Shown here: positions 5,519 through 27,981 of the stretch, piece by piece
How the letters are laid out: every line of letters begins with the position of its first letter
Position numbering within the stretch: the stretch's first letter is position 1
Source: Acaryochloris marina S15
Lineage (GTDB): Bacteria > Cyanobacteriota > Cyanobacteriia > Thermosynechococcales > Thermosynechococcaceae
Direction of reading: 5' to 3'
Assembly: GCF_018336915.1 (NCBI RefSeq)
Contig: NZ_CP064927.1
Span: 1 to 32,000, forward strand
Length of the DNA stretch: 32,000 bases
Made by a program: the position numbers and the translations under genes
Notes under the pieces: generated by a model
Database searches by the model: none
What the model was told of the DNA's origin: nothing
Seen by the model: only the letters and a program-made list of their open reading frames with translations

Positions 5519-8500
5519 ATGCTAGATATCGTCACCATCCACTCAGGCATTGAAAACGGCGAGAGATATTACACCGAAGAAGAGAGCTACTACAGCGAGG
5601 ATGAAGAAATCCAGGCCATCACCAAATCAGAATGGTTTGGCAACATGGCACCCAATGAACCCTATTCAGCAGAGCGGTTCACTGAATTGTTCTATGGCAA
5701 TCTCCCTAATGGTCAGCGGATGCGAGGCGATGTCTTAGGAGATGGCAAAGAACGGTTAGGCTTTGACCTTACATTCGCTGTCCCTGGTAAATCTTTGAGT
5801 ATGCAGATCCATGCCCCTGAAGGTGACAAGCGACTATGGCAAGCTCACATCGAGGCAGTCAAAGAGGTTATGGCTATTGCAGAAGAACGCTATGCCGCTT
5901 CGAGGGTGCAAGTCAGTGGTGATCGGAAAGTCATTAAGACTGGGAATATTGCAGCCTGCCTGGTCAATCACCATGAGAGTCGAGCAGGAGATCCCCATGT
6001 CCACACCCATGTGGTCTTATTCAATGGAACTCACTGCCCTGATGGAGAACACCGGGCCTTATACAAGGAGCTGCTGAGTAAGAGTGGCATTTTAGGAGAT
6101 ATCTATCATCAAAAGCTGGCCCTCAAGGTTCAGGCTTTGGGATATGAGATAGAGGAAACCAGAGAAGGCTTTGAACTTGCAGGAACAACGACAGATCAAA
6201 GAGAGTTGTTCTCTAAACGCTCCACTGAAATTGATGACTACTTAAAAGCGAAGGGCTGGGACAAGACCCCTCAGAATCGACAGAGAGCCGTCTTTGAGAC
6301 TCGGATGGCGAAGGATAAAAGCCAAACCCTAGAAGACAAGCAGGACCGATGGGGCAATGAAATGGCATCGGTGGGCTTCCATGGCATCACCCCTGCCCAT
6401 CACCCGATCACACCCCAGAACCAAGAGACTCCTAGAGAATTGCTTGATGCTGCAATCGGCCATCTCTCTGAACGTCAGTCATCCTTTAGCCACGAAGACA
6501 TTCAGCGATTCGTCTTCTCCCACCTCCGCAGCTTTGATGAAGAACCATTGAACCAAGAGATTGATACCCACCCCGATCTATTAGATGCCTGGGACGGACG
6601 ATACACCACTCAAACTGCAGTGGATCGGGATATCCGCATTATTGACAACTGGCTCCAGGGCAATGACAGGGTTCAACCCCTCAACCCCAATGCTGACTTT
6701 AGCCATACCATCCTCAATAGTGGTCAGTCTGAAGCGATGCAGCGACTGCTCAGCTCACCAGATCAATACCAAATCCTCAAAGGACTCGCAGGCACAGGCA
6801 AGACTACTGCCATGGGTATCGCCCGAGAGCAGCTACCCCCTGAAACCGTGATCAAAGTCTTTGCAGCTACCCACAACGCCAAGAATGCCATTGCGGAATC
6901 CTTTGATCTTGAAGGGGCAACCATTGCTCAACTGGCTGTTTCCGAACCCACCACTGAAGCTAACCAGCTTTGGATTCTCGATGAATCAGGCATGGTCGGC
7001 TCTGAAGACTTTGAGATGGTGATGAATAAAGCAACCAAAGTGAATGCACGGGTCTGGGCTGTAGGAGATACCGGGCAGAATGGAGCCATTGCCGCAGGGG
7101 CACCCGTGCGAATGCTGATGCATAGCGGGGCAACGGTCCATAAACTCAGTGACATCATTCGCCAGCAGAACAAAGACCAGAAAACGGCAGTAAAACTGAT
7201 TGCTGAAGGACATGGCATTGAAGCGCTCAATGTCCTAGAGAAGCATGGTCACATCCATGAAGTTGAAGATGCAGATACTAAAATCTCTGGGGCAGTCAAT
7301 CACTACATGTCATTGCCCCAAAGCCGACGCGATAAAACCTTGGTGGTGATCGGGACCAATGTGGAGAGAGAAGACTTCACGGATCAACTCAGGGGCCAAC
7401 TGATTGAAGAAGGAAGCCTAACCCAGAATACGGAATTTACTCAGCTCAAGAACCGCAATCTCACGAAGGTGCAAAAGAAAAGAGCGGAGAACTACAACAA
7501 GGGTGATTTACTCGTCCTCCATCAGAAACACCGTACCTATACCCAACTGCAAACCCATGTCTCCTATAAAGTCCTGGCAGTGGAAGGTCAGCATTTGCGA
7601 GTGGAGTCACCAGGGGGCAGGAAGTTCAAAATCAATCCAGCTCAGCATAAAAGAACGGAGGTCTATACCGCTAGGAAGAATCATATTGCTGTAGGGGATA
7701 AACTCAGGTTTACCTCAACGAATAAGAAGGCTGGGATTTATACCAATGCCTATCTGGAATGTACGGATATCCAAGACGGCATCGCTACGGTTAGAGGCAA
7801 TAAGGACCAACTACATCAGCTTGATCTGAGTAAGGCTCTACAGATTGATCATGACTGGGCGACGACGACCTATCGGGCACAAGGGGGGACCAATTCAGAG
7901 ACGATCTATATTGCCAGTCTCAATCCCACTTCTGCTAAGGAGTCATTCTATGTGGGTATCTCACGGAATCGAACCAAGCATCTCTCTGTGTTTACAGAAT
8001 CCCTAGAGAAGCTGAAAGGATGGGTGGGCACGTCTAATGCTCAAGAGAATGCCATTGAAACTTTGTTCGATCCCCTGGAAGGTTGGAAGCCTGACTATGC
8101 GGGAGTAGAGAAGCCTTGGCAGATTGATGCCGATACCTGGACGGAGATGAAGGGCAGTGGTGTTCATCCCAGTCTCTTAACCCCAGAGCATCTGAGAAGT
8201 GAGGCGGGGAGTTCTGAGCCTTCAATTCGAGACAACGTGTTAGTGGAGGCTTTGCTGGGAGCTGAGTTTACTAAATCCAAGTATGGCGCAGGCCAAGAAG
8301 TGACCAAAGAGATGAAGCGAAAGCTCAATGGCACTCACAAGGTCAAGGGTAAGTGGATCAATGATCCTGAACGAGCCTATACCCGCATTGCGGAAGGGGG
8401 AGGGTGGATTGGCTATGGGGGGACCGATTTACTCTCTATTGTTGAGGGCAATCCTCAACCCTCTCTCTACTGCCAGGTAAAACCCAAGACACCTCGAATC

Positions 8501-9448
8501 TTTGATGGGAAAGAGAATAAGTATGAAACTCCCAAGGGGGTGGATCAGCAAGTGTTCTTGCCTCATATCCCAGATAAGATTGCCGAGAAGATTTATCGTC
8601 GCAATGCCATCAATCCCACTCCAGAGGAACGGGCGAAAGGGGTCTGGTTTGTAGCGGATCAATATAATCTGCCGATTGTGCTGACGGAGGGGTTGAAAAA
8701 GACTTGGGCATCCCTGAGTCAGGGACATCTGACGGTGGGATTACCCGGTGTCACGGCTTTGTATCGAGCCAAGGATGAATACGATAATCGATTGCCCCAG
8801 AGAGAGTTTACGGACTATGGCAAGGCATTGGCTAAGTCAGGGAGACAGATCACCTTTGCTTTTGACAAGGACACGAGGGTATCGAGCATTATGAATGTCA
8901 GACGTGATCTAGTCCGTACCCTTGAGTTTATGCAGGCTGCGGGGGTGGTCTGTAAGATTGCCCAATGGGAGCCAAAGCTAGGGAAGGGATTGGATGACCT
9001 GATCGTGAAGGCGGGTCCACGAGCTTACAATGTTGCGATTGCCAATGCGGTTCCCCCAGAGGCTGAAATCAAACGGCATTATCGAGGTCAGTACAATGAC
9101 ATTTCTAAGAGGGTGCAGAAACGATTAGGGGAGGTGCCCAAGGAGCGGGTTGACCTGGAGGTTTACGCCTACTGCAAGCAGTATGCAGAGCTGGATGATG
9201 CTCATCGGTTTATCTCTGAGTCAGATCATATGAGGGCTGCGACTCCAGAGCAGAAACGATTGTATTTGCTGGCGATTCACAAAGTCTCACCGATCTATGA
9301 GGATTTGATGAACTCGGATAAGCCGATCAACTTCAATCAGCGGATGCCTGAGATGGTGCAGAATCGGGTCAAGTTGCAGATTGTCAAAGAAAAGCCCACT
9401 CCATTGCAGAGTGAGCAAACTAATTACGATGTAAGCCAATCGTACTAG
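5519..9448 (+). CDS. MOBF (TrwC/TraI-type) conjugative relaxase fused to a RecD-like helicase and a C-terminal Toprim/DUF3854-like domain
   Basis: The relaxase N-terminus has a Tyr cluster (ERYYTEEESYYSED), DLTFAVPGKSLS and the His-triad motif HHESRAGDPHVHTHVVLFN. The helicase has Walker A GLAGTGKTT, Walker B ILDESGMV and TTYRAQGGT. The C-terminal part has LTEGLKKTW..GLPGVTALY...FAFDKDT...GKGLDDLI, an acidic E / DxD pattern typical of Toprim folds that resembles DUF3854. Confidence 0.9.
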   Translation: MLDIVTIHSGIENGERYYTEEESYYSEDEEIQAITKSEWFGNMAPNEPYSAERFTELFYGNLPNGQRMRGDVLGDGKERLGFDLTFAVPGKSLSMQIHAPEGDKRLWQAHIEAVKEVMAIAEERYAASRVQVSGDRKVIKTGNIAACLVNHHESRAGDPHVHTHVVLFNGTHCPDGEHRALYKELLSKSGILGDIYHQKLALKVQALGYEIEETREGFELAGTTTDQRELFSKRSTEIDDYLKAKGWDKTPQNRQRAVFETRMAKDKSQTLEDKQDRWGNEMASVGFHGITPAHHPITPQNQETPRELLDAAIGHLSERQSSFSHEDIQRFVFSHLRSFDEEPLNQEIDTHPDLLDAWDGRYTTQTAVDRDIRIIDNWLQGNDRVQPLNPNADFSHTILNSGQSEAMQRLLSSPDQYQILKGLAGTGKTTAMGIAREQLPPETVIKVFAATHNAKNAIAESFDLEGATIAQLAVSEPTTEANQLWILDESGMVGSEDFEMVMNKATKVNARVWAVGDTGQNGAIAAGAPVRMLMHSGATVHKLSDIIRQQNKDQKTAVKLIAEGHGIEALNVLEKHGHIHEVEDADTKISGAVNHYMSLPQSRRDKTLVVIGTNVEREDFTDQLRGQLIEEGSLTQNTEFTQLKNRNLTKVQKKRAENYNKGDLLVLHQKHRTYTQLQTHVSYKVLAVEGQHLRVESPGGRKFKINPAQHKRTEVYTARKNHIAVGDKLRFTSTNKKAGIYTNAYLECTDIQDGIATVRGNKDQLHQLDLSKALQIDHDWATTTYRAQGGTNSETIYIASLNPTSAKESFYVGISRNRTKHLSVFTESLEKLKGWVGTSNAQENAIETLFDPLEGWKPDYAGVEKPWQIDADTWTEMKGSGVHPSLLTPEHLRSEAGSSEPSIRDNVLVEALLGAEFTKSKYGAGQEVTKEMKRKLNGTHKVKGKWINDPERAYTRIAEGGGWIGYGGTDLLSIVEGNPQPSLYCQVKPKTPRIFDGKENKYETPKGVDQQVFLPHIPDKIAEKIYRRNAINPTPEERAKGVWFVADQYNLPIVLTEGLKKTWASLSQGHLTVGLPGVTALYRAKDEYDNRLPQREFTDYGKALAKSGRQITFAFDKDTRVSSIMNVRRDLVRTLEFMQAAGVVCKIAQWEPKLGKGLDDLIVKAGPRAYNVAIANAVPPEAEIKRHYRGQYNDISKRVQKRLGEVPKERVDLEVYAYCKQYAELDDAHRFISESDHMRAATPEQKRLYLLAIHKVSPIYEDLMNSDKPINFNQRMPEMVQNRVKLQIVKEKPTPLQSEQTNYDVSQSY

Positions 9449-15322: not shown

Positions 15323-15760
15323 CTACATCCCCAAATCCTGAGACTGAGATTGCTTTTGACTCTGCTGCTGAGACTGCTTCGGTTGCTGGGATCGACGCTG
15401 TTCTACCTTGTCTCGATTGATCTCATGCTGTGCCCTGGACATTACCCGGTCCTCATACAGCTTCACTTTCTCAGGGGACTGGGTTTGCTTTGCCACTTCC
15501 TTGATCGAGTTGCCAGCTCTGACAATTTGCCTGAGCTGTGCCCCTTTCAGCCCTCCTTTCATCCCTGCTTTAACGTTGGCGATATCATCAGCCCGTGACT
15601 CAAATTTGATGGACACACGATTATTGAATTTAGCGAGTTGTGCCCTCAGAATTCGCAGGGTTTGAGCCGTGAGCTTGGCCCCTTTTTCTACGCCTTCCTG
15701 GGCCAGGTGCATTCCTTTATCAGCATCCCGCTCTAAGGTCTGGTCTTGACTAGGCTGCAT
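15323..15760 (-). CDS. Hypothetical 145-aa basic/Q-rich protein translationally coupled to the coupling-protein gene
   Basis: Its ATG at 15760 overlaps the T4CP stop (15750-15752) by 11 nt. The tail is SQQPKQSQQQSQKQSQSQ. I recognise no motif. It could be a relaxosome or DNA-binding accessory protein, but that is inference only. Confidence 0.65.
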   Translation of the reverse strand: MQPSQDQTLERDADKGMHLAQEGVEKGAKLTAQTLRILRAQLAKFNNRVSIKFESRADDIANVKAGMKGGLKGAQLRQIVRAGNSIKEVAKQTQSPEKVKLYEDRVMSRAQHEINRDKVEQRRSQQPKQSQQQSQKQSQSQDLGM

Positions 15761-17567
15761 CGCTCATATCCTCCTGTTCGTCTACATCAGTGGTTTTATC
15801 TGCCTGGGTATCATCAGTGCCTTCCTCTGCGTCAATTTCAGCGGCTTCTTGTTCGATGGCATAGTAGTCTTCTGGTGGTAGTAGATCCTCGGCGGCTGCG
15901 GCTCTATTCTCCATTGCCACTTGGATATTGATATCCCCAAAGTGCTTCTGATGTTCTTCTTGTAAGCTGGGCAGAATATCCTCTCGCCATGCGACTTCAC
16001 ACTGCTTCCGAATCTTGGCTTGGGGACTGTTCTCGTCATAGGGAAGCTGGGTCTTCTCGTAGATGATTGGGTGGCCGTTGGTGGAGGCATCGACGATGAT
16101 GCATTGCCCTGGTTTCTTCATGGCGTCTAGGCGATCTGCGGTCATCAAATCCACTTGCTGAAAGCTGTCGTTGCGACTTCTGGAATGGTTGGAACCAAAG
16201 GACTCGTTTTCTGTGGTGCTGATGATGGTTTTCTTGCCTAAGCGATTGGCGATGACTTGATTGCTTTTATAGGATCCTTGGTTCATATAGATCCGGGTTG
16301 GCAGGTTAGCGGCGATGCTTTCCCAGCGTTTCTCGCCATAGAGTTCCTGCATCTGTTCTTCTTGCTGATAAATCATCCACATCAAGAGACCATTTTGCCG
16401 TCCGAGGGCTGACCATTTCTTGGCATCAGGATAGAGGGTGAAACTGGCTTCTTCGATGATCACGCCGAGATTGTTCTGGCGTCTGCGGGTATAGCTGATG
16501 TTGCGCTTGATCAGCATATGTTGGGCAGCGGCTAAATAGGTCTTGGTGGCTTCTAGCTGGTCTTCGTTGATGCGGAAGAAGATGGCTTGTTTACCTGTGA
16601 GGTCTAAGGGAATGGTGGTCTTGGTCATGCATTTAGCAATCTCGGGGTCGAGGAATTGCACCCAGTTCTGGCTAGCGGTGGATTGAATGGTGGGGCCTGG
16701 GTTGGCACTGCTGGAGCTGTTGGCGACGGTTCTTAGTCCTCGACTCAGGTGAGTCATAAAGTAGGGAAGTCCTTTTCCCATTTTGTCGTTGTCTTTGGCT
16801 GCGGCTAGGCGTTCGGCGATGTTGTTGAGACCCATTAGTTCCCAGACCATGAGCATGTCGGCATATTCACTGCTTTTAGCTCCCAGCATCATGGACTGTT
16901 GCATAAGGTCAGACTGGGGACCAAAGTATTGATGTCTACGCTCATAGTTCTCGACGGCGTTGATGTTGATGCCTCGGGTCAGTTCAAGGGTGCCTGCAAG
17001 GTCTTCTTCACTCTCGATCAGGTCGAGGAGGTTGAGGCCACCGGAGAAGGGGAGCCTTTCTGCGGAGTATTTTGATTCTTCTTTGATGCCTGGGGCGAGA
17101 AAGTGGATGTCATAGCCCAGGTCGTGGAGATAGGCGGCTGTTTTCTCCATCAGTTCACCTTTGATGTCACCGATGACCATTGCGGCCCCATCTTCGGCTA
17201 GGGATTCGATCAGGCGAAGGGCAAAGTTTGCGGTCTTTCCACCACCGCTTTTACCTGAGACGAGGCCACCAGGGTTGACGGGTCCAAGGGTGATGCCTGT
17301 TTCTGGGTTGAGTTGGATCGCGGATTTTTCAATGTCGCCTTCAGCTCGGATCAGTTTGGCTTTGTTGGACCCTTCTTTGATTTCTTTGGGGGTGGCTTCT
17401 CTGGCGTTTGGCATTCCCTCGGGAATTTGAGTTCTGCGTTTGTTGAGGGTGCCCAGCCAGATGATAAAGACGAGGCTGAGGAAGCCTACGGTGAGCCAGC
17501 CGTAGTTGAGGGGGATGTTGTGGAACCCTCTGTAGTCTGATGAGGGTTGGGTGGTTTGTTGGGGCAT
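15750..17567 (-). CDS. Type IV coupling protein (VirD4/TraG/TraD-like conjugative ATPase)
   Basis: An N-terminal TM segment (WLTVGFLSLVFIIWLG) is followed by Walker A GKSGGGKT and a Walker-B-like GVIIEEASF. The size is about 600 aa and the strongly acidic C-terminal tail (EEGTDDTQADKTTDVDEQEDMSDAA) resembles T4CP tails. The gene sits next to a relaxase locus. Confidence 0.75.
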   Translation of the reverse strand: MPQQTTQPSSDYRGFHNIPLNYGWLTVGFLSLVFIIWLGTLNKRRTQIPEGMPNAREATPKEIKEGSNKAKLIRAEGDIEKSAIQLNPETGITLGPVNPGGLVSGKSGGGKTANFALRLIESLAEDGAAMVIGDIKGELMEKTAAYLHDLGYDIHFLAPGIKEESKYSAERLPFSGGLNLLDLIESEEDLAGTLELTRGININAVENYERRHQYFGPQSDLMQQSMMLGAKSSEYADMLMVWELMGLNNIAERLAAAKDNDKMGKGLPYFMTHLSRGLRTVANSSSSANPGPTIQSTASQNWVQFLDPEIAKCMTKTTIPLDLTGKQAIFFRINEDQLEATKTYLAAAQHMLIKRNISYTRRRQNNLGVIIEEASFTLYPDAKKWSALGRQNGLLMWMIYQQEEQMQELYGEKRWESIAANLPTRIYMNQGSYKSNQVIANRLGKKTIISTTENESFGSNHSRSRNDSFQQVDLMTADRLDAMKKPGQCIIVDASTNGHPIIYEKTQLPYDENSPQAKIRKQCEVAWREDILPSLQEEHQKHFGDINIQVAMENRAAAAEDLLPPEDYYAIEQEAAEIDAEEGTDDTQADKTTDVDEQEDMSDAA

Positions 17568-17601
17568 ACAAAAATCCCGCTAGAGAGCTAGTTCTAACGG
17601 G

Positions 17602-17633
17602 AACATAGGCAGATTGTATGGTGGGGTGCAAAT
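17602..17633 (-). promoter_or_regulatory. Copy B of the conserved 32-nt promoter/operator motif
   Basis: In the sense orientation it reads ATTTGCACCCCACCATACAATCTGCCTATGTT. It ends 34 nt upstream of the ATG at 17567 and is immediately followed by the palindrome CCCGcTAGA-N8-TCTAaCGGG (17576-17601). Confidence 0.6.
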
Positions 17634-18419: not shown

Positions 18420-21400
18420 TTACCGTGGAACGTTGTAAGTCTTAAGGGCTGGGAGGTTGATATGCTTCCGAGGGTTGACGACGGTGCCAGAGTCGCGATC
18501 ACCGGTAACATATCCCTCAATCACGCCAAGGTCAATATGGGGGCCGGTGGATAATCCAGTGCTGCCCACTTCGCCAATGAGCTGCCCTGGACTCACCGTA
18601 TCACCTGCTTTTACGTAGTTGACTTTATTGTGAGCATACCAAGTCGCCAGCCCGTTGCCGTGGTCAATTAAGATCCAGTTTCCGTAATTACCATTATAAA
18701 AGCTCTCGACAACCGTCCCTCCGTCTGCAGCCGCGAAGGGTGTCCCGGCATAGTGGGCTAAGTCAATCCCACTGTGGAAGCTATTGCCCCCGTTCTTGGG
18801 GTGAATCCGTGGCCCATAATTACTGCTTAGGAGATAATCATGCTTGGCTAATGGGTCCGACAGCCGACCGGATGCAACGCCAGATCCAGGCACAAAATTA
18901 CTGCTGTCTATATTGCCTGCACTTGCCAACAACGCAGGATTACACCGCTGTGCATTCGTATTGATCGCAGCCAACAATGGGTTCTGCCCTGCATCCCCAT
19001 TCGGACCATATTGAGCCAAGATTGCCGGGTCTTTCCATATGTCATGCTGTTCAGCTCCCCCCGGCAGGCTCGTAAACTGGCCGTATTTGGTTTTCCCAGG
19101 AACGGGCCGACCTAGCAGTAGATCAGCGGTGGCAAAGTCACCAGCCTCAATCAGGCCCATGATATCGGTCCCTATTTGACCCGAGAAGTCCTGAATCAAG
19201 GCCACTGCCGCCTGATCGCGTTCGGCTTTATTCGTTGACCAGGCATCTACCCCATACCGATCCAATATCGTCTTTCGTGTCTCAGGAATAAACTGATATT
19301 CCCCATACGCTCCGGTATCAGGATGGGCGTCAATATCCGTCCCCCCCGACGATTCACCCAAGGCAATGCGGGCGAGATACTGTCTGAGATTATGTTGAGG
19401 ATCAGATGGGGTTGAAGCTGTGCTTCCTTGTTGGCTGCTCACAGCCCCTGGTTGACCCGGTATACCCGTCAATTGTGGGGCACCACTTGAGCCATCAATC
19501 GGTTGAAGGACGCCATTGGATGACGCAGTAGTACCTTGATTCTGACTCCCAGCCGCATTCGCAAAGGTCTGTTGCGCCTGACTGGTCCCTACAAACCGCC
19601 AGTGCCAAGGCTCAAATATAACGCCTTGGCTATTCCCCTGGGGAAATGACAACTCAAACCCGTACTTCCCGGCATTGGCTTGCATCCAGGCATATTCAGG
19701 TGTCTGTGCCCAAGACTCATTCAGGCTGGCATTCTGGTTGTTGCCTACATCCACCGCTAGACCCGTGTGGTGCTCACTATATCCAGGTGGAGCAACTGAC
19801 TTGGCAACTTCTTCAGCAGATTGGTTCGCCAACTTTCTATCCCAATTAGCCTGCTGATGAGACACGGATCGGAAGCCTGAGACTGCTTTAATATCTAATC
19901 CCTGAGCAGCCGCATCTGCTCTCAGTTGCTCAAAGGCTTGGGCGGCTTCTGGGGCTAGGGTTTCCTGAACGCCATCGACGGAGGTCACGTTTTGAAGCTG
20001 TCCGGTCGTCTCTGCATAGGCTAAGTGACCATAGAGAGATTGATTATCCGGTGGAGGACTACTCTTGGCTGCGGTATTCCCCCCTAAGAAGTCAGGGGCT
20101 TGGCAGAAGTTAATGGTTCTCGCTTTCTCGTTAATCCCTGGAAAGTAGTCTTGGACTTTACGCCGAGCCAGGATCGGGAAGATGCCCCCGACTTTGACTT
20201 TCCACGGGGTTTTGAAGCTGAAGATATGAGCGGTGCAGTGCTTCTCAAATAGGATGGTGACGCAGATCTGAAAGTCTACCCATAGCCGAGCTTCTGCGGG
20301 TTTATCATCGTATTCGGTGATATTTCCCAGGCTGAATTTGGTGAGGGAGCCATTGCCAAAGGGCTTAATGCCTGCTCGTTCCTTATTGCCAAACAGGCAG
20401 AGAAAGCCTTTGCATCCGGGGACTTCCTGATCTCGACTCATCCACTCTTTTCCCAGAAGTGGATCACCGAGAATGGTGGTCCCTGGTTCTAGGGGTGCCA
20501 TCTCAAACCGGGGAAACCCTCTTTTGGGTCGCTTGCTTCTGCTAGTGGCACTCTTGATGCCATGCTCTGGTTTGAATTTTCCGTCAGGGGTGCCGCCACT
20601 GATGGGTCTTCCATAATGTTCTTCTGCTCCATCTTGACCACTATGGGCGATATCGAACCGACCAAAGATATCCCCGGCAAGGATATTGAAGATGATCGGG
20701 GCGACGATGGAGCCAAGGGCGGTATCACCGAGGCCAGGGACGGAGCTTAGGATCTTGTCTTCTATGCCGGGGAATCGCTCTAGGGCCAGGTCTGCGAGTT
20801 GGGGTAAGGCTTGGTCTAAGGGCTGATTGGCAATATGGACGATGCCACCGATGGGCACTTGCTTGAGTTCGGGGAATTCTTTGATGACTTCGTTGAGGGT
20901 GAAGTTTTGGATTTCATCAATGGCATAGGCTTGGGCGCGTTGCCGTGCGGATTCCCAGTTGCCTTCGATGACTTCGATGGTGAGAGAGCCAACGGGTAAT
21001 CGGTGCAGCTCTGGGGGAAGGTCATTGCCAATCTCTCGAAGTAAGACTTGTTCGCCTTCTTTGATGGCCCCTTTCCAGTCGCCATCTAGGAGGTCTTCAA
21101 AGGGAATATCTTTGAGGGCGGGATTCTTGTTCAGTTCGTTGATCAGGACTTTCTTGCCTGTACTCAGGGCATTGCGTTGAAGCTGTTTCTGGGCACCTGT
21201 GGGGTCGAGGACGACTCCAACGACGGCTTGGAATAGGGGAGCGGAGTCTTTGAGTTTGATATCGCCGTTGTTGTAAATGTCTTTGACCTGTTCAAGGTTA
21301 AGGCCATTGACTAGTTCAATCTGGCTGATGGGCACTCCTCCGATATCAGTACCAATAGCATTGTTAAAGTCTCTAAGACTGTGTTTAGTGAAGCCTGCAA

Positions 21401-21722
21401 ACTGAGGGTTTTGCTTTAAGTCTCCAAATTTGATGATTTTGTCTGGGGTGGCTCCTGCGGGCCAAGCTCGGTTGGGATCATAGTTGAGGTTAGGGTCATC
21501 GACGACGACCCAACCGGGAGAGTTGGCACCGGGGAGATGGGAGAAGGAAACCCCTTGGGCTTCAGGGGGTGGATCGTAGATTAGCCCAGGAACGTTGGCG
21601 AGTTCTGGGGCGGGATAGTACCCGACTGGCTGGGCTTGACTCCAGACGGGAAGGGTCTGGGAGGCTGCGATCACGATGGAGGCGATGAGGGTAGGACATC
21701 GCTTGAGAACATTGAGGGTCAC
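18420..21722 (-). CDS. Secreted 1100-aa multi-domain peptidoglycan hydrolase: unknown N-terminal half, then a VanY/M15B D-Ala-D-Ala carboxypeptidase-like domain, a lysozyme/lytic-transglycosylase-like domain and an M23 peptidase domain
   Basis: GTG start at 21722 and signal-like N-terminus (LIASIVIAASQTLPVWSQA). M15B-type motifs are SGFRSVSHQ, PGYSEHHTGLAVDV and FEPWHWRF. The transglycosylase-like part is IALGESSGGTDI...GAYGEYQF. M23 motifs are HSGIDLA, GTVV, ILIDHGNG..T.YAH and GSTGLSTGPHIDLGV. Confidence 0.85.
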   Translation of the reverse strand: MTLNVLKRCPTLIASIVIAASQTLPVWSQAQPVGYYPAPELANVPGLIYDPPPEAQGVSFSHLPGANSPGWVVVDDPNLNYDPNRAWPAGATPDKIIKFGDLKQNPQFAGFTKHSLRDFNNAIGTDIGGVPISQIELVNGLNLEQVKDIYNNGDIKLKDSAPLFQAVVGVVLDPTGAQKQLQRNALSTGKKVLINELNKNPALKDIPFEDLLDGDWKGAIKEGEQVLLREIGNDLPPELHRLPVGSLTIEVIEGNWESARQRAQAYAIDEIQNFTLNEVIKEFPELKQVPIGGIVHIANQPLDQALPQLADLALERFPGIEDKILSSVPGLGDTALGSIVAPIIFNILAGDIFGRFDIAHSGQDGAEEHYGRPISGGTPDGKFKPEHGIKSATSRSKRPKRGFPRFEMAPLEPGTTILGDPLLGKEWMSRDQEVPGCKGFLCLFGNKERAGIKPFGNGSLTKFSLGNITEYDDKPAEARLWVDFQICVTILFEKHCTAHIFSFKTPWKVKVGGIFPILARRKVQDYFPGINEKARTINFCQAPDFLGGNTAAKSSPPPDNQSLYGHLAYAETTGQLQNVTSVDGVQETLAPEAAQAFEQLRADAAAQGLDIKAVSGFRSVSHQQANWDRKLANQSAEEVAKSVAPPGYSEHHTGLAVDVGNNQNASLNESWAQTPEYAWMQANAGKYGFELSFPQGNSQGVIFEPWHWRFVGTSQAQQTFANAAGSQNQGTTASSNGVLQPIDGSSGAPQLTGIPGQPGAVSSQQGSTASTPSDPQHNLRQYLARIALGESSGGTDIDAHPDTGAYGEYQFIPETRKTILDRYGVDAWSTNKAERDQAAVALIQDFSGQIGTDIMGLIEAGDFATADLLLGRPVPGKTKYGQFTSLPGGAEQHDIWKDPAILAQYGPNGDAGQNPLLAAINTNAQRCNPALLASAGNIDSSNFVPGSGVASGRLSDPLAKHDYLLSSNYGPRIHPKNGGNSFHSGIDLAHYAGTPFAAADGGTVVESFYNGNYGNWILIDHGNGLATWYAHNKVNYVKAGDTVSPGQLIGEVGSTGLSTGPHIDLGVIEGYVTGDRDSGTVVNPRKHINLPALKTYNVPR

Positions 21723-21809
21723 TAACAGAAATCCCCTGTAGATGGGCTACAGAGGAAACATAGGCAGGATGGCCTTTGAGGTGCAAATTTGTTGGTATAT
21801 CAGGGGTTG
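21718..21809. repeat. Left copy of a 92-bp direct repeat (promoter copy C, leader and GTG start of the hydrolase gene)
   Basis: A gapless by-eye alignment to 23673-23764 gives 82/92 identical. The offset is 1955 bp. Confidence 0.9.
21757..21788 (-). promoter_or_regulatory. Copy C of the conserved 32-nt promoter/operator motif
   Basis: In the sense orientation it reads ATTTGCACCTCAAAGGCCATCCTGCCTATGTT. It ends 34 nt upstream of the GTG at 21722 and is followed by the palindrome CCCCTGTAG-atggg-CTACAGAGG (21733-21755). Confidence 0.6.
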
Positions 21810-21880
21810 ATAGACTACATCTTTCTATCAAGATTGGGAAATGACCCACCATTAATCCTGATAGAGAACAGTGAATCGAT

Positions 21881-22726
21881 TTAGCCAAATACTTGGACTT
21901 CCACGAGCACATTCACAAAATCATCAGTCGATTGAATGTCACTGAAGAACAAAGAATCTCTCCACACCAATCTGACATCATGTTGATTACTAAAAGCCAT
22001 GCGAAGCATTTCAAGAAGACTTTCTTCATCGGGAGAAGGCTGAAAAATGGGCAGGTACACATCCTCCGTTGAACCTTCTGTTCGCACTCTGACAAAGTGG
22101 AGCATCCGGTCTCTAACAATTTCGCTAATGGACCGGATTTGAGTACGATCTCCAACTCTTCTTGTGTCCTGGTTATTAGGAAATCGATTTTTCTCTAAAT
22201 TGTATAGTGCTCGCGTTGGATCAAGAGGATATGAATTTTCAGAATTACCAAGAAGTGGCACCACCATCTCTGGAAGCCATCTCATCTCAAAATGAAGATG
22301 TTCAGGAGCATCTAATGGCCCAACTTCTGCAATTTGTTCACCAGCCACAACAGTTTGATTAATATTAACCAGTGGGTTTCTTAGATGAAGATATCGACTA
22401 ATTATCCCGGAGGCTAAAGGGTCATGCTGAATTGCAATAATGGTTCCACCAGGGATATCATTTATCAAAATGACTCTACCATCTGCAACTGCAAATACGG
22501 GTTCACCTTCATCTGCCAGCAAATCTACACCTTCATGTATACGTGCTAATCCACCATCAGATAGACTTGCTCTCCGTACCCCAAATAAGCCTAAGCTATC
22601 ATTTGTTCGTAATCTCAACGGTAACGTACTAAATGGTTCTGGAGTTGTTGACCTATTGAGATCCATAGGAGGAGCAATCAGAATTTCAATAGGGCCAAAT
22701 GGTATTCCTACATTCATAATTTTCAT
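21881..22726 (-). CDS. M23 (LytM-type) metallopeptidase-domain protein without an obvious signal peptide, plus an unknown ~100-aa C-terminal domain
   Basis: HxxxD motif IHEGVDLLA, then PVFAVADGRV, IIAIQHD, YLHL, GEQIAEVG and the HxH motif EHLHFEM. The N-terminus MKIMNVGIPFGPIEILIAPPMD is not signal-like. The gene is AT-rich. Confidence 0.75.
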   Translation of the reverse strand: MKIMNVGIPFGPIEILIAPPMDLNRSTTPEPFSTLPLRLRTNDSLGLFGVRRASLSDGGLARIHEGVDLLADEGEPVFAVADGRVILINDIPGGTIIAIQHDPLASGIISRYLHLRNPLVNINQTVVAGEQIAEVGPLDAPEHLHFEMRWLPEMVVPLLGNSENSYPLDPTRALYNLEKNRFPNNQDTRRVGDRTQIRSISEIVRDRMLHFVRVRTEGSTEDVYLPIFQPSPDEESLLEMLRMAFSNQHDVRLVWRDSLFFSDIQSTDDFVNVLVEVQVFG

Positions 22727-22970
22727 TTATATAAAGCGTGTGTTGGGAAAACTAACTTATTGAGTTTTCTATTTATATTTCTGATTACTTCCCTAAATTT
22801 ATGTCTATTGAATAAAAAATTTACATTTTCAAAATATCCAAACAGTAATTACCTAAATATGGATACTTGAAATTATTTTGATCACATGAATATCTTTGGC
22901 AATATATGAATAGCACTAACAAAAGATTTTCAACCCAATTGACATTTAATTGCTTTGATATAGAACTAGT

Positions 22971-23005
22971 AATAAAATCCCTCCCATGTCATATGTTGGG
23001 AGGGA
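22971..23005 (-). terminator. Intrinsic terminator specific to the minus strand, inside the M23/SUKH divergent intergenic region
   Basis: The 9-bp stem is TCCCTCCCA (22978-22986) / TGGGAGGGA (22997-23005) with a 10-nt loop. In the minus-strand RNA the stem is followed by UUUUAUU (plus-strand aataaaa, 22971-22977). The plus strand has no T tail. Confidence 0.6.
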
Positions 23006-23131
23006 GAAGAATGCATAATCTTAGAATAAGTCGAAGAGTAGACAAACTCTTTAGTTTAGGCCGGTCAACTCACTAGCGCCAATACAACCTCACTACCAAA
23101 CCGCCATTACTGCGTTACGTTCCTATTGATC

Positions 23132-23671
23132 ATGCTTGTTGAAAAAGTTGAAGCCAAATTCCCGCCCGGTGTTTCGATGCCAAGGCCAATTCGCTGCTTA
23201 TGCAACTTCTTGGACAAGCACGGTTACCCGATCAGTGGCTGCTTCGAAATCAGTACGATTGGCGATGATGACATGGCAGCTTGGTTTCCAAACGACGAGA
23301 CGATGCAGCATCAGTTTGCCGTCTTCGGTCGTGGCTCTACGGGATCTGTTTATGCTCTTTGGCTTCGGGGGACTCAAGATGCTGAATCTGCCCCAGTCAT
23401 CGTTCTAGGATCTGAGGGAGAACTGCTTGTTCTTGCAGTAAATTCACTAGAATTCTGCCGTCTATTGGGCTGTGGATACAACGAATTAGAGTGGGATGAT
23501 CTCACCCAAGAATCATCGGAGTGGGACACTGCTCAACTGTTACGAGATTGGCTTACTGCTACTTTAAATGTCGAGTGTCCTACAAAGGGTGGCTCTATTG
23601 TCTCTACTGCTCAGAAACAATATTCTGACTTTCCTAGTTTTGTTCAGCAGTGGCAAAGCGCAAACCTGTGA
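23132..23671 (+). CDS. SMI1/KNR4 (SUKH-superfamily)-like protein, a possible immunity-type protein
   Basis: The ATG at 23132 gives MLVEKVEAKF. The ORF-track start at 23126 is a TTG. The pattern ...LCNFLDKHGYPISG....FAVFGRGSTGSVYALWL....APVIVLGSEGELLVLAVNSLEFCRLL resembles SUKH/SMI1_KNR4 domains as I remember them. There is no signal peptide. Confidence 0.5.
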   Translation: MLVEKVEAKFPPGVSMPRPIRCLCNFLDKHGYPISGCFEISTIGDDDMAAWFPNDETMQHQFAVFGRGSTGSVYALWLRGTQDAESAPVIVLGSEGELLVLAVNSLEFCRLLGCGYNELEWDDLTQESSEWDTAQLLRDWLTATLNVECPTKGGSIVSTAQKQYSDFPSFVQQWQSANL

Positions 23672-23672
23672 T

Positions 23673-23764
23673 GTCACAAACAAGAATCCTCTGTAGATGG
23701 GCTACTAAGGAAACATAGGAAGAATGGCCTGTGAGGTGCAAATTTGTTGGTAAATCAGGGGTTG
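23673..23764. repeat. Right copy of the 92-bp direct repeat (orphan promoter copy D, leader and retained GTG)
   Basis: See 21718-21809. It begins 2 nt after the TGA stop (23669-23671) of the SUKH-like gene. Confidence 0.9.
23712..23743 (-). promoter_or_regulatory. Copy D of the conserved motif, an orphan with no downstream same-strand gene that points antisense into the SUKH-like gene
   Basis: In the sense orientation it reads ATTTGCACCTCACAGGCCATTCTTCCTATGTT. No minus-strand ORF of 60 aa or more lies between it and the terminator at 22971-23005. Confidence 0.5.
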
Positions 23765-24197
23765 GGGCTGTTGTTTACATAGCTTAAAATGTTACTTTGC
23801 CAATCGGATTGATTGACAAGCACTTTACCTCTTTCAGAAGTCATTATTTACTTCCCCTCCTAGAAATTTGATTCGCTTTGCGTAAAAGAAAGGTATGAAG
23901 CCGATAAATCTCTAGGAATAAATAATTTTTGCCCAGATTACCAGTGACAAGAGCAATACCCCTTATAAGGCCAAGCTGACAAGGAAAATCTAGGGATAGA
24001 TGCGTGTATTTAGAAGATGAATCGATTGAGATATCTTCAATACGTTGATGAAAACCAGATTTTAAGCCTGAGGGGAAATTTGCCCATCATCTTAACCGCT
24101 CCCCATAGGGGTTCCAAACAACCCAATCTGGCCCCTGAGCAAAGTGATGTCAAGTCCATTAATCAATTTATTGTTCTCTAGCTAATGAGGAATCACG

Positions 24198-25130
24198 ATG
24201 GCAAAGAGTATTGAAGGCATATCTGGTCAGATCTGGGATGATTATTATGAAAAATTTGAAGCTTACTTCAGCCGTGATTTAGTGAGGGATGGCTGTCATC
24301 CCTTGATCTTTGAGCAAGTTGAACCCACCGATAAAGCGATTGTGTTGGTTCATGGATTGTCTGACTCTCCCTATTTTATGAGCGCGATTGGGGAGTATTT
24401 CTATCAAAAACTGGGGTACAACGTCTACTTGCCGCTTCTGCATTTTCATGGTTTGAAGGATCCCAAAGAGATGGAAGGAGTAGAGCTAGAAGAGTGGAAA
24501 GCGAACGTTAGATTTGCCATCAATGTGGCCGAAGACAATGCCGAGAAAGTTTCCATCGGAGGCTTATCGACGGGTGGTGCCCTGGGCTTTTATATGGCAG
24601 CAACTAGCCCAAGGATTGACGGCGCACTATACCTATTTTCTGCAGCACTTGATCTGGCGGGTGGTCGGCTTGGACTTATAGGTGAAGTAAAAGAACGTGT
24701 ACTGAGAACCTTTTGGCCTGATCTACTGAAACCTATTCTGAATAGAAATGCCCCTCCCTTAGTTGGAGACAATCCCTATGGATATAGCCATGTTGATCTA
24801 GATGGGGCTCAAGAACTCGCGAGGCTGATTAAGGAAACCGATATTCTACTGAAGGGATTTAGTCATAAAGCACGGTTTGCAAAGCGGGTCTTTGCTGCCC
24901 ACTCCGAGTCTGACACTACGGCTAGCTTAGAAGGGATTAGAGAGCTACAATCTGTGTCAGATCCGACTCTATTCCACCCCTATATCTTTCACAAGGATCT
25001 AGAAATTTCCCATGCTAGCCTTGTCCTCGAAGATACTATTGCGAATAATGAGGGGCAGATCATAAAGGACGCAAATCCCCAATTTGCCGAGATGATGACA
25101 GAAATTAAGCAGTTCCAAGATGGAAATTGA
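24198..25130 (+). CDS. Alpha/beta-hydrolase-fold esterase/lipase (carboxylesterase or monoacylglycerol-lipase-like)
   Basis: VLVHGLSDSPYFM is an oxyanion-region-like strand-loop, and the nucleophile elbow is GGLSTGG. Candidate catalytic Asp is in HSESD and His in EISHASL. There is no signal peptide. Confidence 0.75.
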   Translation: MAKSIEGISGQIWDDYYEKFEAYFSRDLVRDGCHPLIFEQVEPTDKAIVLVHGLSDSPYFMSAIGEYFYQKLGYNVYLPLLHFHGLKDPKEMEGVELEEWKANVRFAINVAEDNAEKVSIGGLSTGGALGFYMAATSPRIDGALYLFSAALDLAGGRLGLIGEVKERVLRTFWPDLLKPILNRNAPPLVGDNPYGYSHVDLDGAQELARLIKETDILLKGFSHKARFAKRVFAAHSESDTTASLEGIRELQSVSDPTLFHPYIFHKDLEISHASLVLEDTIANNEGQIIKDANPQFAEMMTEIKQFQDGN

Positions 25131-26354: not shown

Positions 26355-26499
26355 AATTCCGCATCATTAGGTATCTAACAAATTAAGGCACGAATATAAA
26401 AATACTGTCGCTAGTAGATTTGAAGATAGATTTGGTTTCTATCTCATGTAAATTTTTTAGTGTACGGTTTTTATTCAATTTGTGTCAGTCTGTTCAATC

Positions 26500-26542
26500 A
26501 CGATGAAGACAGTAATATGTTCTATAGAACTGTCTTCATCGT
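26500..26542. repeat. 14-bp perfect inverted repeat between convergent genes
   Basis: ACGATGAAGACAGT (26500-26513) / ACTGTCTTCATCGT (26529-26542) with a 15-nt spacer. The palindrome TTCTATAGAA (26520-26529) overlaps the junction of spacer and right arm. Neither side has a clear U-rich tail. Confidence 0.7.
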
Positions 26543-26595
26543 AATTCTTGGAATTTAGCTGTTGAATAATCAAGTAGAATGCAAAATTGATGAAA

Positions 26596-27981
26596 TCAGC
26601 CAATCGGCACAATCTCAACCTCACCATCAAACCGCCAGTACTGGGTGATCTCTTGCCCGCCTCGCTGTCGTTGGGGATTGGATACAAGCCGGGAAATGTG
26701 ATTCCCTCCCCGCACATCCGCTAACTGGTCCGTGGCGATCTCTCCCCCAATTGCAGCCACTGTCCCCATCACTCTATCCCCGAAAGATTCTCCTCCCTGG
26801 CGCTTCAGTTGCGCTCTCAGGTACTTAGTATTCTTGCGTCTGACCTCCATCGTCCCTGGCTCAATCTCTTGACCATTGATACTGACCACATGAGCCGTGA
26901 ACTGCAAGCCATTCATCTTTTGAATCTTGGCCTCAGCCATCTGACCTTTATGAGGTCCACTGGTGATTTTCAAAGGAATGACCACCTGTTGAGCCTCTTG
27001 AGGGGATAACCATTCCACATGATCAATTACCTTGGCCTTCATGGAGGTCCGGGTCGGTGGTGCTGCACCCTGGCCTGAACCATAGAACTCAGACTCAAAC
27101 TGATCCACCGTTTGAATCTCACCCGCCATAAAGTTGACCTGATAGTCAGGCTTTACTTTTGTCTGAGGTTTAGCTTTACTCCTATTGGCAAAGGCTAGCT
27201 TGACGGGTTTAGCCTGGGGCCGAGGGGTATAGGTGGGACGGGTGACTTTCGGGATTTTGCCTATCGAGGATGTTTGGGAGGATGACTGAGGCTTTTGACT
27301 GATCTGATAGCGGTTACAGCCTGGAACGTTCATACTCCGCTCCACATAGCCCACACATTCATTCAAGGAGGGGCCGCTAGGCTTAGACTTGGCAAGCAAG
27401 GAAGGGCTGGGCTTTGCTGGAGTATAGGTGCGTTTTGGAGTCGAGTTGCCATAGAGCCGACGAGGAACCCTGACGGTATTTTTTGGCTGGACGGGCTTAC
27501 CCCCTACCTGCAAGGGTTTTTTCTGTCCAGCCTGCTGGGCTTTCAGGGCTTTCTGCTTTTGGGCCTGCTGCTTGAGCCGCTTTTGTCGTTGATCAAACGG
27601 CTCTAAGTCTGCGGCTTGAGTTAATCCCATGTTGTCTTGGGCAAGCTGGGCTTTCTCCAGTTCAGACTGCTGAAGCTTTTCCGTCAGGCTGATAATCTGC
27701 TTATCCTTATCTCCCAAGGCCATCACCACCTGGGGCTTCGGTCCCCATAGCTTATAGCCCACGAACCCAGTGATAAGCAGAGGGACGGCGATGAAACCAA
27801 TCCTAAACCAGGGCTGCAGATAGTAGGGATGTTTGACCTTATCCCCTGGATCCACCATTTTCTCTAGATCGTTGATGGGACGACCCTCAGCCACCTTGTT
27901 CTCTTCTAAGAGTTCATTGAGTTCCGGGTCTTCCAACAATGTGGCTTTGGCTTCCTCGACCTGGCGTTTATCTGTCGGCAT
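26596..27981 (-). CDS. Bitopic transfer protein with VirB10/TrbI-like architecture (short cytoplasmic N-terminus, one TM, coiled coil, Pro/Lys-rich linker, C-terminal beta-rich domain)
   Basis: The TM segment is FRIGFIAVPLLITGFVGYKLW and the coiled coil is LTEKLQQSELEKAQLAQ. The long linker is K/P/Q-rich (KPVQPKNTVRVP...TPRPQAKPVKL). The C-terminal domain is about 190 aa. The assignment rests on architecture only; I recognise no diagnostic motif. Confidence 0.45.
   Translation of the reverse strand: MPTDKRQVEEAKATLLEDPELNELLEENKVAEGRPINDLEKMVDPGDKVKHPYYLQPWFRIGFIAVPLLITGFVGYKLWGPKPQVVMALGDKDKQIISLTEKLQQSELEKAQLAQDNMGLTQAADLEPFDQRQKRLKQQAQKQKALKAQQAGQKKPLQVGGKPVQPKNTVRVPRRLYGNSTPKRTYTPAKPSPSLLAKSKPSGPSLNECVGYVERSMNVPGCNRYQISQKPQSSSQTSSIGKIPKVTRPTYTPRPQAKPVKLAFANRSKAKPQTKVKPDYQVNFMAGEIQTVDQFESEFYGSGQGAAPPTRTSMKAKVIDHVEWLSPQEAQQVVIPLKITSGPHKGQMAEAKIQKMNGLQFTAHVVSINGQEIEPGTMEVRRKNTKYLRAQLKRQGGESFGDRVMGTVAAIGGEIATDQLADVRGGNHISRLVSNPQRQRGGQEITQYWRFDGEVEIVPIG

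Follow-up and report, generated by a model that had tools for sequence, protein, structure and literature searches.

Is a cargo gene of Acaryochloris marina S15 covered from end to end by an antisense RNA, and, if so, would that RNA serve to regulate the gene? The question arises in a stretch of 32,000 nucleotides (nt) of this cyanobacterium (contig NZ_CP064927.1, positions 1 to 32,000, here called the window), the DNA of which matches only Acaryochloris plasmids that are typed as conjugative, MOBF plus MPF_T. The gene in question encodes a protein of 179 amino acids (aa). On its opposite strand, a copy of a promoter-type motif (copy D) lies on one side and a GC-rich hairpin with a run of U lies on the other, and a sequence-only reading had taken the two as the ends of a discrete cis-antisense RNA that would tie expression of the gene inversely to the transfer regulon. 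The features concerned are listed below with position and strand.

23132-23671, (+): the 179-aa gene, possibly a distant relative of SUKH/SMI1-KNR4
23712-23743, (-): orphan copy D, with 0 mismatches to the motif; it reads ATTTGCAC (TTGCAC, -35-like), an 18-nt spacer and TATGTT (-10-like)
23687-23711, (-): leader hairpin of D, starting directly after TATGTT; minimum free energy (MFE) of -7.6 kcal/mol in a 41-nt context, versus -14.2 kcal/mol in copy C, the copy in front of a neighboring hydrolase gene
23564-23677, (-): open reading frame (ORF) of 37 codons opened by the retained hydrolase GTG, antisense to the 3' end of the 179-aa gene
23063-23125, (-): relic of a 461-aa paralogue, comprising its last ~17 codons, pseudogenized; it reads NVTQ*WRFGSEVVLALVS*, versus ITQYWRFDGEVEIVPIG* in the intact gene
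22970-23005, (-): predicted intrinsic terminator, with a 9-bp stem UCCCUCCCA/UGGGAGGGA at 22978-23005, a 10-nt loop and a U-tail UUUUAUUA at 22970-22977

The anatomy described in the sequence-only reading was borne out. The motif scan finds copy D on the minus strand (23712-23743), its core free of mismatches, and the minus-strand stretch from D to the hairpin is antisense to the entire coding sequence (CDS) at 23132-23671. Between D and the M23 peptidase gene beyond the hairpin there is no minus-strand ORF of at least 60 aa, the largest being 59, 51 and 39 aa. The 9-bp GC-rich hairpin lies past the CDS and has its U-tail on the minus strand only, and the retained GTG opens just 37 codons (23564-23677) that are not conserved in the related plasmid pREB7. 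As for what the anatomy means, the proposal of a discrete cis-antisense RNA gains from the promoter-type motif, the strand-specific terminator and the lack of a conserved ORF, while its extension to a dedicated regulatory device loses ground, both ends of the unit being relics.

The reading that we favor, with about an even chance of being right, is that the locus is a recombination joint at which an antisense RNA is likely made and tolerated as a by-product, not as a selected regulator. If the motif is active, an RNA of ~735 nt (about 23705 to 22970) that is co-regulated with the transfer genes is a plausible expectation. Such an RNA would begin near 23705, ~7 nt beyond TATGTT, traverse the entire 179-aa gene in antisense and end near 22970. 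The M23 gene beyond the relic terminator would be insulated from it, with a promoter-like site of its own, and the 179-aa gene would be damped to some extent by convergent transcription and RNA duplex formation when the transfer regulon is on. That the antisense unit has a regulatory role maintained by selection appears doubtful.

The motif of copy D and the transfer genes

The motif was defined as ATTTG-N12-CA-N3-T-N-CCTATGTT, with 17 core positions and at most 1 mismatch allowed. The window contains 6 matches, against 0.00 expected. Five of them end 29 to 34 nt upstream of the start codon of a long, co-oriented gene, and each of these gene-proximal copies precedes the first gene of a co-directional set. 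The genes behind the five copies start at the following positions.

5519: TrwC-type relaxase (5519-9448)
13842: 507-aa protein
17567: TraG/TraD-type coupling protein (15750-17567)
21722: VanY plus M23 cell-wall hydrolase of 1100 aa (18420-21722, minus strand), the promoter and leader of which are copy C
29175: 158-aa protein

In the plasmids pREB7, pREB8 and pMB06, the gene-proximal copies lie at the same short distance from start codons. From this geometry and conservation, it is reasonable to regard the motif as the promoter of a transfer regulon. The sixth copy in the window is D, the end of which lies 34 nt before the GTG retained at 23677; judged by how the other five copies are placed, it points into the 179-aa gene.

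Compared with the sigma-70 consensus, TATGTT matches at 4/6 positions and TTGCAC at 3/6, and the spacing is 18 nt (16 to 18 expected), which places the pair below the scan threshold. The invariant positions of the motif reach beyond the -35 and -10 hexamers. Since D has an intact motif core and a native upstream flank, it most likely fires with the other five transfer promoters, and on balance we lean toward copy D being active as a promoter.

The 37-codon ORF that follows the retained GTG is probably not coding. We rejected it as a conserved small protein, since in pREB7 the sequence after the GTG is different, consisting of ~13 hydrolase codons followed by other sequence.

Two further observations concern the promoters of this family. 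The coupling-protein promoter (17565-17602, minus strand) and the hydrolase promoter (21732-21757, minus strand) each have a terminator-like GC-rich hairpin at or inside TATGTT, followed by a U-run, and equivalents of these hairpins are found in relatives (L011 27907-27957, pREB8 608-658 and L014 1136-1186). In the coupling-protein promoter the hairpin has 11 predicted pairs, 2 of which show compensatory changes among 4 plasmids. Transcripts that start ~7 nt after TATGTT lack most of the 5' arm, so these hairpins might block only upstream read-through. The transfer promoters may thus carry "self-blind" terminators, which would stop read-through from upstream and would be unable to form in the promoters' own transcripts. 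In addition, most hydrolase-type copies have the element CAACCCCTGAyATAyCAAC just upstream of the -35 (window 21789-21809 and 23744-23764, with equivalents in pREB7, pREB8 and L007). The element is absent from the functional copies of pREB7 and pMB06 and is thus not essential for the hydrolase promoter.

The predicted terminator hairpin and the relic of a 461-aa gene

Folded in an 81-nt context, the hairpin at 22978-23005 gives an MFE of -17.4 kcal/mol. On the minus strand it is followed by UUUUAUUA and on the plus strand by GAGAAGAA, so the U-tail is present on the minus strand only. The standard terminator scan missed the hairpin because its loop limit was 8. A strict scan of both strands of the 32 kb (perfect stem of at least 8 bp, at least 5 GC pairs, loop of at most 12, at least 5 T in 8) found only 2 distinct sites, one of which is this hairpin; the scan gave 3 rows, the hairpin being listed under two stem and loop settings, against a mean of 0.3 in 20 Markov simulations. 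An Rfam scan of 21000-25000 with E values up to 1 found no family.

The hairpin lies 127 nt beyond the start of the 179-aa gene and 57 nt after the stop codon of the 461-aa relic. In a relative, L007, an intact-looking C terminus (GEVELVPVG*) stands ahead of the same hairpin, which there begins ~40 nt after the gene end. The hairpin is kept, with a variable loop, in the metagenomic contig L006, in pREB7 (twice), in pREB6 and in L007, and the L007 stem has lost one C and one G from opposite arms, a compensatory pair of changes that preserves pairing. In pREC4, the DNA that matches the relic lies within the 3' end of an intact 458-aa CDS. Relic and hairpin occur together as a module twice in pREB7 and once in L006. 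Since the relic C terminus adjoins the hairpin, the L007 gene end is followed by it and the stems are kept, we take the hairpin for the native terminator of the 461-aa backbone gene, of which the window also holds an intact copy (26596-27981, minus strand). The hairpin at 22978-23005 probably does terminate transcription.

The hairpin bears on another explanation, in which transcripts from D pass the hairpin and become a long-leader mRNA for the M23 gene, with the 179-aa gene opposed in the manner of an excludon. The features beyond the hairpin are as follows.

22875-22902, (-): sigma-70-like site, TTGCCA-16 nt-CAAAAT, downstream of the terminator, a consensus match only
21881-22726, (-): M23 peptidase cargo gene of 281 aa, the second gene of the block between repeats C and D (see below)

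The M23 gene is indeed on the same strand as D and immediately beyond the hairpin, and in pREB6 and pREB7 the hairpin stands ~80 nt upstream of a same-strand gene of 164 aa, so it can occupy an upstream region. However, the hairpin is among the two strongest terminator-like sites of the window, in L007 it follows an intact-looking gene end and behaves as a true terminator module, and the sigma-70-like site lies between it and the M23 gene. That site is a candidate for the M23 gene's own promoter. We consider read-through from D into the M23 gene very improbable.

The 164-aa hypothetical gene just mentioned occurs three times, at 4716-5210 and 8783-9277 in pREB7 and at 2434-2928 in pREB6. The CCCTCCC...GGGAGGG hairpin lies ~80 nt upstream on the same strand in pREB6 and at the first pREB7 copy, and downstream at the second one in pREB7. 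Hairpin and 164-aa gene seem to move together as a module.

We also considered the M23 gene as a truncated copy of a second hydrolase gene and rejected this, the similarity being 36% over 75 aa with no plasmid relative.

A duplicated hydrolase promoter and an inserted block

Copy D is part of a direct repeat of 92 nt, and the two copies of the repeat are 89% identical.

21718-21809, (-): repeat copy C, promoter and leader now serving the hydrolase gene
23673-23764, (-): repeat copy D, with the upstream element, motif, leader and GTG

Copy C runs on into the hydrolase CDS. Copy D, on the other hand, matches the upstream side of the pREB8 hydrolase promoter past the repeat boundary (window 23673-23785 versus pREB8 4217-4329, 85.8%). 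From this flank match, and from the CDS that C keeps, we infer that copy D has stayed in its original upstream context and is the ancestral one. The native upstream flank is therefore longer in D than in C, the copy that must drive the hydrolase. The two repeats are separated by 1955 bp carrying the M23 gene and the 179-aa gene, a stretch that, from the sequence comparison, is an inserted block. An ORF of 116 aa (21562-21912, minus strand), which spans promoter copy C and reaches into the M23 gene end on one side and the hydrolase gene start on the other, matches no family and is probably spurious.

In pREB8 and pMB06, a single hydrolase promoter directly faces the cargo genes. Read along the minus strand, this simple backbone consists of the 461-aa gene with its terminator, a cargo slot, the hydrolase promoter and the hydrolase gene. 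The window, read in the same direction, begins with the 461-aa gene and a terminator at 26496-26546, a first cargo (plus-strand genes for a 277-aa protein and an alpha/beta hydrolase) and promoter D with its GTG. It then continues with the 179-aa gene in reverse, the 461-aa relic with its terminator, a second cargo (the M23 gene), and promoter C with the hydrolase gene. Two cargo slots thus seem to be stacked in tandem, with the backbone between them collapsed to its two ends. Such a joint would result if two related plasmids recombined and a large deletion followed, a mechanism proposed from the structure. The collapsed joint of two stacked slots explains why a promoter and a terminator bracket the 179-aa gene with the order and strand that an antisense unit needs. 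Sequence comparison establishes the anatomy of the locus, the duplication, and the origin of both ends as relics; a recombination origin of the locus is nearly certain.

The terminator at 26496-26546 separates the 277-aa gene (plus strand) from the 461-aa gene (minus strand), which converge on it. It consists of a nearly perfect inverted repeat, each arm 23 nt long. The MFE values are -28.7 kcal/mol (z-score, -7.1) for the minus strand and -27.0 kcal/mol (z-score, -4.3) for the plus strand, and the structure probably terminates transcription in both directions. It is unlike the terminator module of the 461-aa relic at 22978-23005.

Copy D compared with its relatives

The comparative set comprises three architectures, namely that of the window and L006, that of pREB7 and that of L007. 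In pREB7, the same block is found, consisting of an orphan promoter, the gene (77% aa identity), the relic and the hairpin, with different cargo on both sides; it retains ~13 hydrolase codons and 52 extra nt. In the coordinates of pREB7 of strain MBIC11017 (NC_009932.1), the orphan motif is at 75,289-75,320, the gene (AM1_RS36475, minus strand) at 75,446-75,985, the hairpin at 76,113-76,138 and the hydrolase gene at 77,211-80,411, so the corresponding predicted RNA would extend on the plus strand from about 75,327 to about 76,145. L006 has the gene at 92% identity and the junction of the window, and each end of this contig falls within the repeat. In L007, where the gene is 77% identical, a promoterless hydrolase fragment lies upstream of it and the downstream side has no promoter copy. 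This fragment (1095-1259) comprises 165 nt from the 5' coding region of the hydrolase, lacks a start codon, and is flanked by a methyltransferase gene and by the 179-aa gene. Such 5' pieces of the hydrolase gene stand beside the 179-aa gene in three arrangements, which suggests a recombination hot spot.

pREB8 contains a second, orphan hydrolase promoter (7292-7446), which is accompanied by ~105 nt from the start of the hydrolase coding region and points at the 3' end of a lipase gene. This orphan is visibly decaying, with 2 mismatches in the core and GTA in place of GTG. Together with the functional copy it forms a direct repeat that brackets the alpha/beta hydrolase and lipase cargo, so the same kind of scar recurs.

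Two candidate relatives, P0004 and P0007 (71% identical proteins), were set aside as uninformative; both are short contigs that have only part of the coding region in common with the window and no plasmid flanks. Metagenome scans for the hydrolase-type leader pattern gave no match, and those for close relatives of the 179-aa protein found none.

Between the window and pREB7, synonymous divergence is 0.615 for the 179-aa gene and 0.51 for the hydrolase gene (0.33 in its first 150 codons). Differences amount to 34% in the noncoding relic, 17% in the orphan promoter and leader, and 6% in the functional hydrolase promoter. Window D differs from window C at 9/71 positions and from the pREB7 orphan at 12/71; between the pREB7 orphan and window C there are just 3 differences in 71. 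The orphan copies therefore do not form a clade, the pREB7 orphan being nearer to window C than to D. D has 4 private substitutions, none of them in the 17 core positions, and the functional copies have 0 to 2; those of D include leader positions 37 and 38. The leader hairpins are weaker in all four orphans than in the functional copies, with MFE values of -7.6, -10.8 and -11.7 kcal/mol for orphans versus -14.2 and -14.8 kcal/mol for functional copies. The L006 orphan leader has a mismatch and an 8-nt deletion that removes the U-run.

Several findings weigh against a tolerated RNA made from copy D. With regard to its activity, the standard consensus promoter scan called no copy of the motif, the -35 element is poor (TTGCAC, 3/6), one private substitution of D is a G-to-T change two bases upstream of TATGTT, and the motif may depend on an activator or on another sigma factor. 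Literature searches retrieved no Acaryochloris plasmid antisense RNAs, start maps or transcripts for these loci. With regard to its dispensability, the window, L006 and pREB7 all have the orphan promoter, the gene, the relic and the hairpin together as one block despite differing flanking cargo. The divergence of the orphan promoter (17%) is below that of the adjacent relic (34%) and of synonymous sites (33 to 61%), which fits selection, and core positions have been lost in the pREB8 orphan only. A published Acaryochloris transcriptome study gives differentially expressed small RNAs for the chromosome, and pREB7 and conjugation are not mentioned there.

The doubts about activity would be accounted for if the joint were a silent scar, with D inactive, or the motif a binding site of a regulator, no discrete antisense RNA and the terminator an unused relic. 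The poor -35, the uncalled motif and the private substitutions of D, one of them beside the -10, all agree with this, as does the conserved hairpin with its U-run right at the -10 in the B-type and C-type copies, which is unusual for a simple promoter. However, the spacing of 29 to 34 nt in 5 of the 6 window copies and in all gene-proximal copies of three other plasmids speaks for a promoter, and D has more native upstream flank than copy C. A silent scar is in our view unlikely.

The conservation of the block would, on the other hand, be expected of a dedicated cis-antisense regulator, one in which a co-opted orphan promoter is maintained by selection and turns the 179-aa gene down when the transfer regulon is on. 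Besides the persistence of the block and the low divergence of its promoter relative to adjacent noncoding DNA, window D and the pREB7 orphan have kept every one of the 17 core positions, and L006 has kept the visible -10 part. The distance between the stop codon and the motif is 41 nt in the window and 126 nt in pREB7, so the arrangement may have arisen twice; given these different junctions, the pairing of the gene with an antisense promoter may have originated more than once. Against such a regulator, the orphans are not clustered and evolve faster than the functional copies, and the leader hairpins are decaying in all four of them. L007 has the 179-aa gene without a promoter copy, and the pREB8 orphan is decaying and faces unrelated genes. 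Apparent conservation can also result from gene conversion among the many copies, the gene is not known to be linked functionally to transfer, and the M23 neighbor is not conserved.

The comparison of rates between orphan and functional copies is suggestive of selection but underpowered, with gene conversion as a possible confounder. The divergence figures fit relaxed constraint with occasional gene conversion and, equally, weak selection on the promoter core, and gene conversion from functional copies could by itself give the selection-like figures. We regard a dedicated regulator as unlikely. More specific still is a regulon-coupled antisense switch that silences an immunity-like cargo gene at conjugation, with the "self-blind" promoter terminators as a related possibility, and for this we see only a slim chance.

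The 179-aa gene

The ATG at 23132 agrees with the N terminus of 79 homologues of the same length, and the ratio of nonsynonymous to synonymous substitution rates (dN/dS) is 0.09 to 0.15, indicating a real plus-strand gene under purifying selection. The family is mostly planctomycetal and in those bacteria mainly chromosomal (Pirellulaceae, Thalassoglobus, Blastopirellula), the named homologues having 54 to 68% identity, a distribution that suggests horizontal acquisition across phyla. The AlphaFold model of the protein has a predicted local distance difference test (pLDDT) value of 94.

The label "SUKH/SMI1-like" that the sequence-only reading had attached to the protein held up less well. The window protein matches no Pfam family even at E values up to 1 and no NCBIfam family. 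SMI1_KNR4 matches 9 of 40 homologues weakly and below threshold (best E value, 0.0038), and Streptomyces proteins found by tblastn, some of which are annotated as SMI1/KNR4, have 31 to 34% identity (E values of 1e-5 to 3e-4). Foldseek against the PDB gave nothing at E values of 0.001 or below, with entries of the Knr4 core domain recurring weakly at a template modeling (TM) score of about 0.32, and a PDB sequence search with a 40-sequence profile gave nothing meaningful. The SUKH assignment is thus weakly supported. Family profile searches found no DNA-binding or regulator domain in the protein. A fixed toxin-immunity pairing is not supported, since the neighbor is the M23 gene in the window and an unrelated 164-aa gene takes its place in pREB7.

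On the sense strand, the standard scan found no plus-strand terminator between the 179-aa gene and the alpha/beta hydrolase gene, and sense transcription probably runs across D. For the antisense strand, we infer promoter activity, termination and an effect on the 179-aa gene from the features described above.

Relation to known antisense systems

Antisense transcription is pervasive in cyanobacteria, and long cis-antisense RNAs have been described there, including IsrR over isiA, As1_flv4, PsbA2R and alpha-furA, which covers all of furA in Anabaena. The predicted unit is of this familiar type, with parts left over from two other operons. As in these cases, a noncoding transcript of the opposite strand would overlap a gene and lower or modulate its expression by pairing or interference. 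Those RNAs were seen experimentally, whereas the RNA in the window is a prediction, with a paralogous regulon promoter and a borrowed terminator.

Among conjugative plasmids, prgQ/prgX of pCF10 and FinP/traJ of F likewise combine face-to-face promoters with an antisense RNA linked to the state of transfer. Their targets are transfer regulators and the overlaps are short, whereas in the window a cargo gene would be overlapped over its whole length. The excludons of Listeria resemble the locus in having a long antisense transcript over one gene that is tied to the expression of a divergent neighbor. An excludon transcript continues as the neighbor's mRNA, however, and in the window a strong putative terminator and a promoter-like site precede the M23 gene.

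Scars left by direct-repeat insertion or cointegrate resolution are similar in that a repeat (here of promoter, leader and start codon) flanks a block and the ancestral left and right contexts are split. Unlike typical scars of this type, the block in the window has no associated recombinase site or transposase, and its mechanism is deduced from structure.

If the RNA is made, plasmid recombination would have created a complete antisense transcription unit in one step from the leftover ends of other operons, and a newly acquired cargo gene would have become coupled automatically to the transfer program. The segment upstream of the hydrolase gene is a recurrent site of cargo insertion in Acaryochloris plasmids. 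The practical value is modest, as cyanobacteria commonly make antisense transcripts, no function is known for the target, and selection for the layout is not evident.

Other features of the window and its relatives

Besides the genes named above, the window contains several further backbone proteins without annotation. In L006, which is nearest to the block of the window, a gene for an extra hydrophobic protein of 189 aa (262-831) lies between the hydrolase promoter copy and the M23 gene, an addition absent from the window. At the left end of the window, a trypsin-like/TPR protein of 703 aa (168-2279) has 9 tandem repeats of 102 nt at 1106-2221, which correspond to TPR repeats and are ordinary.

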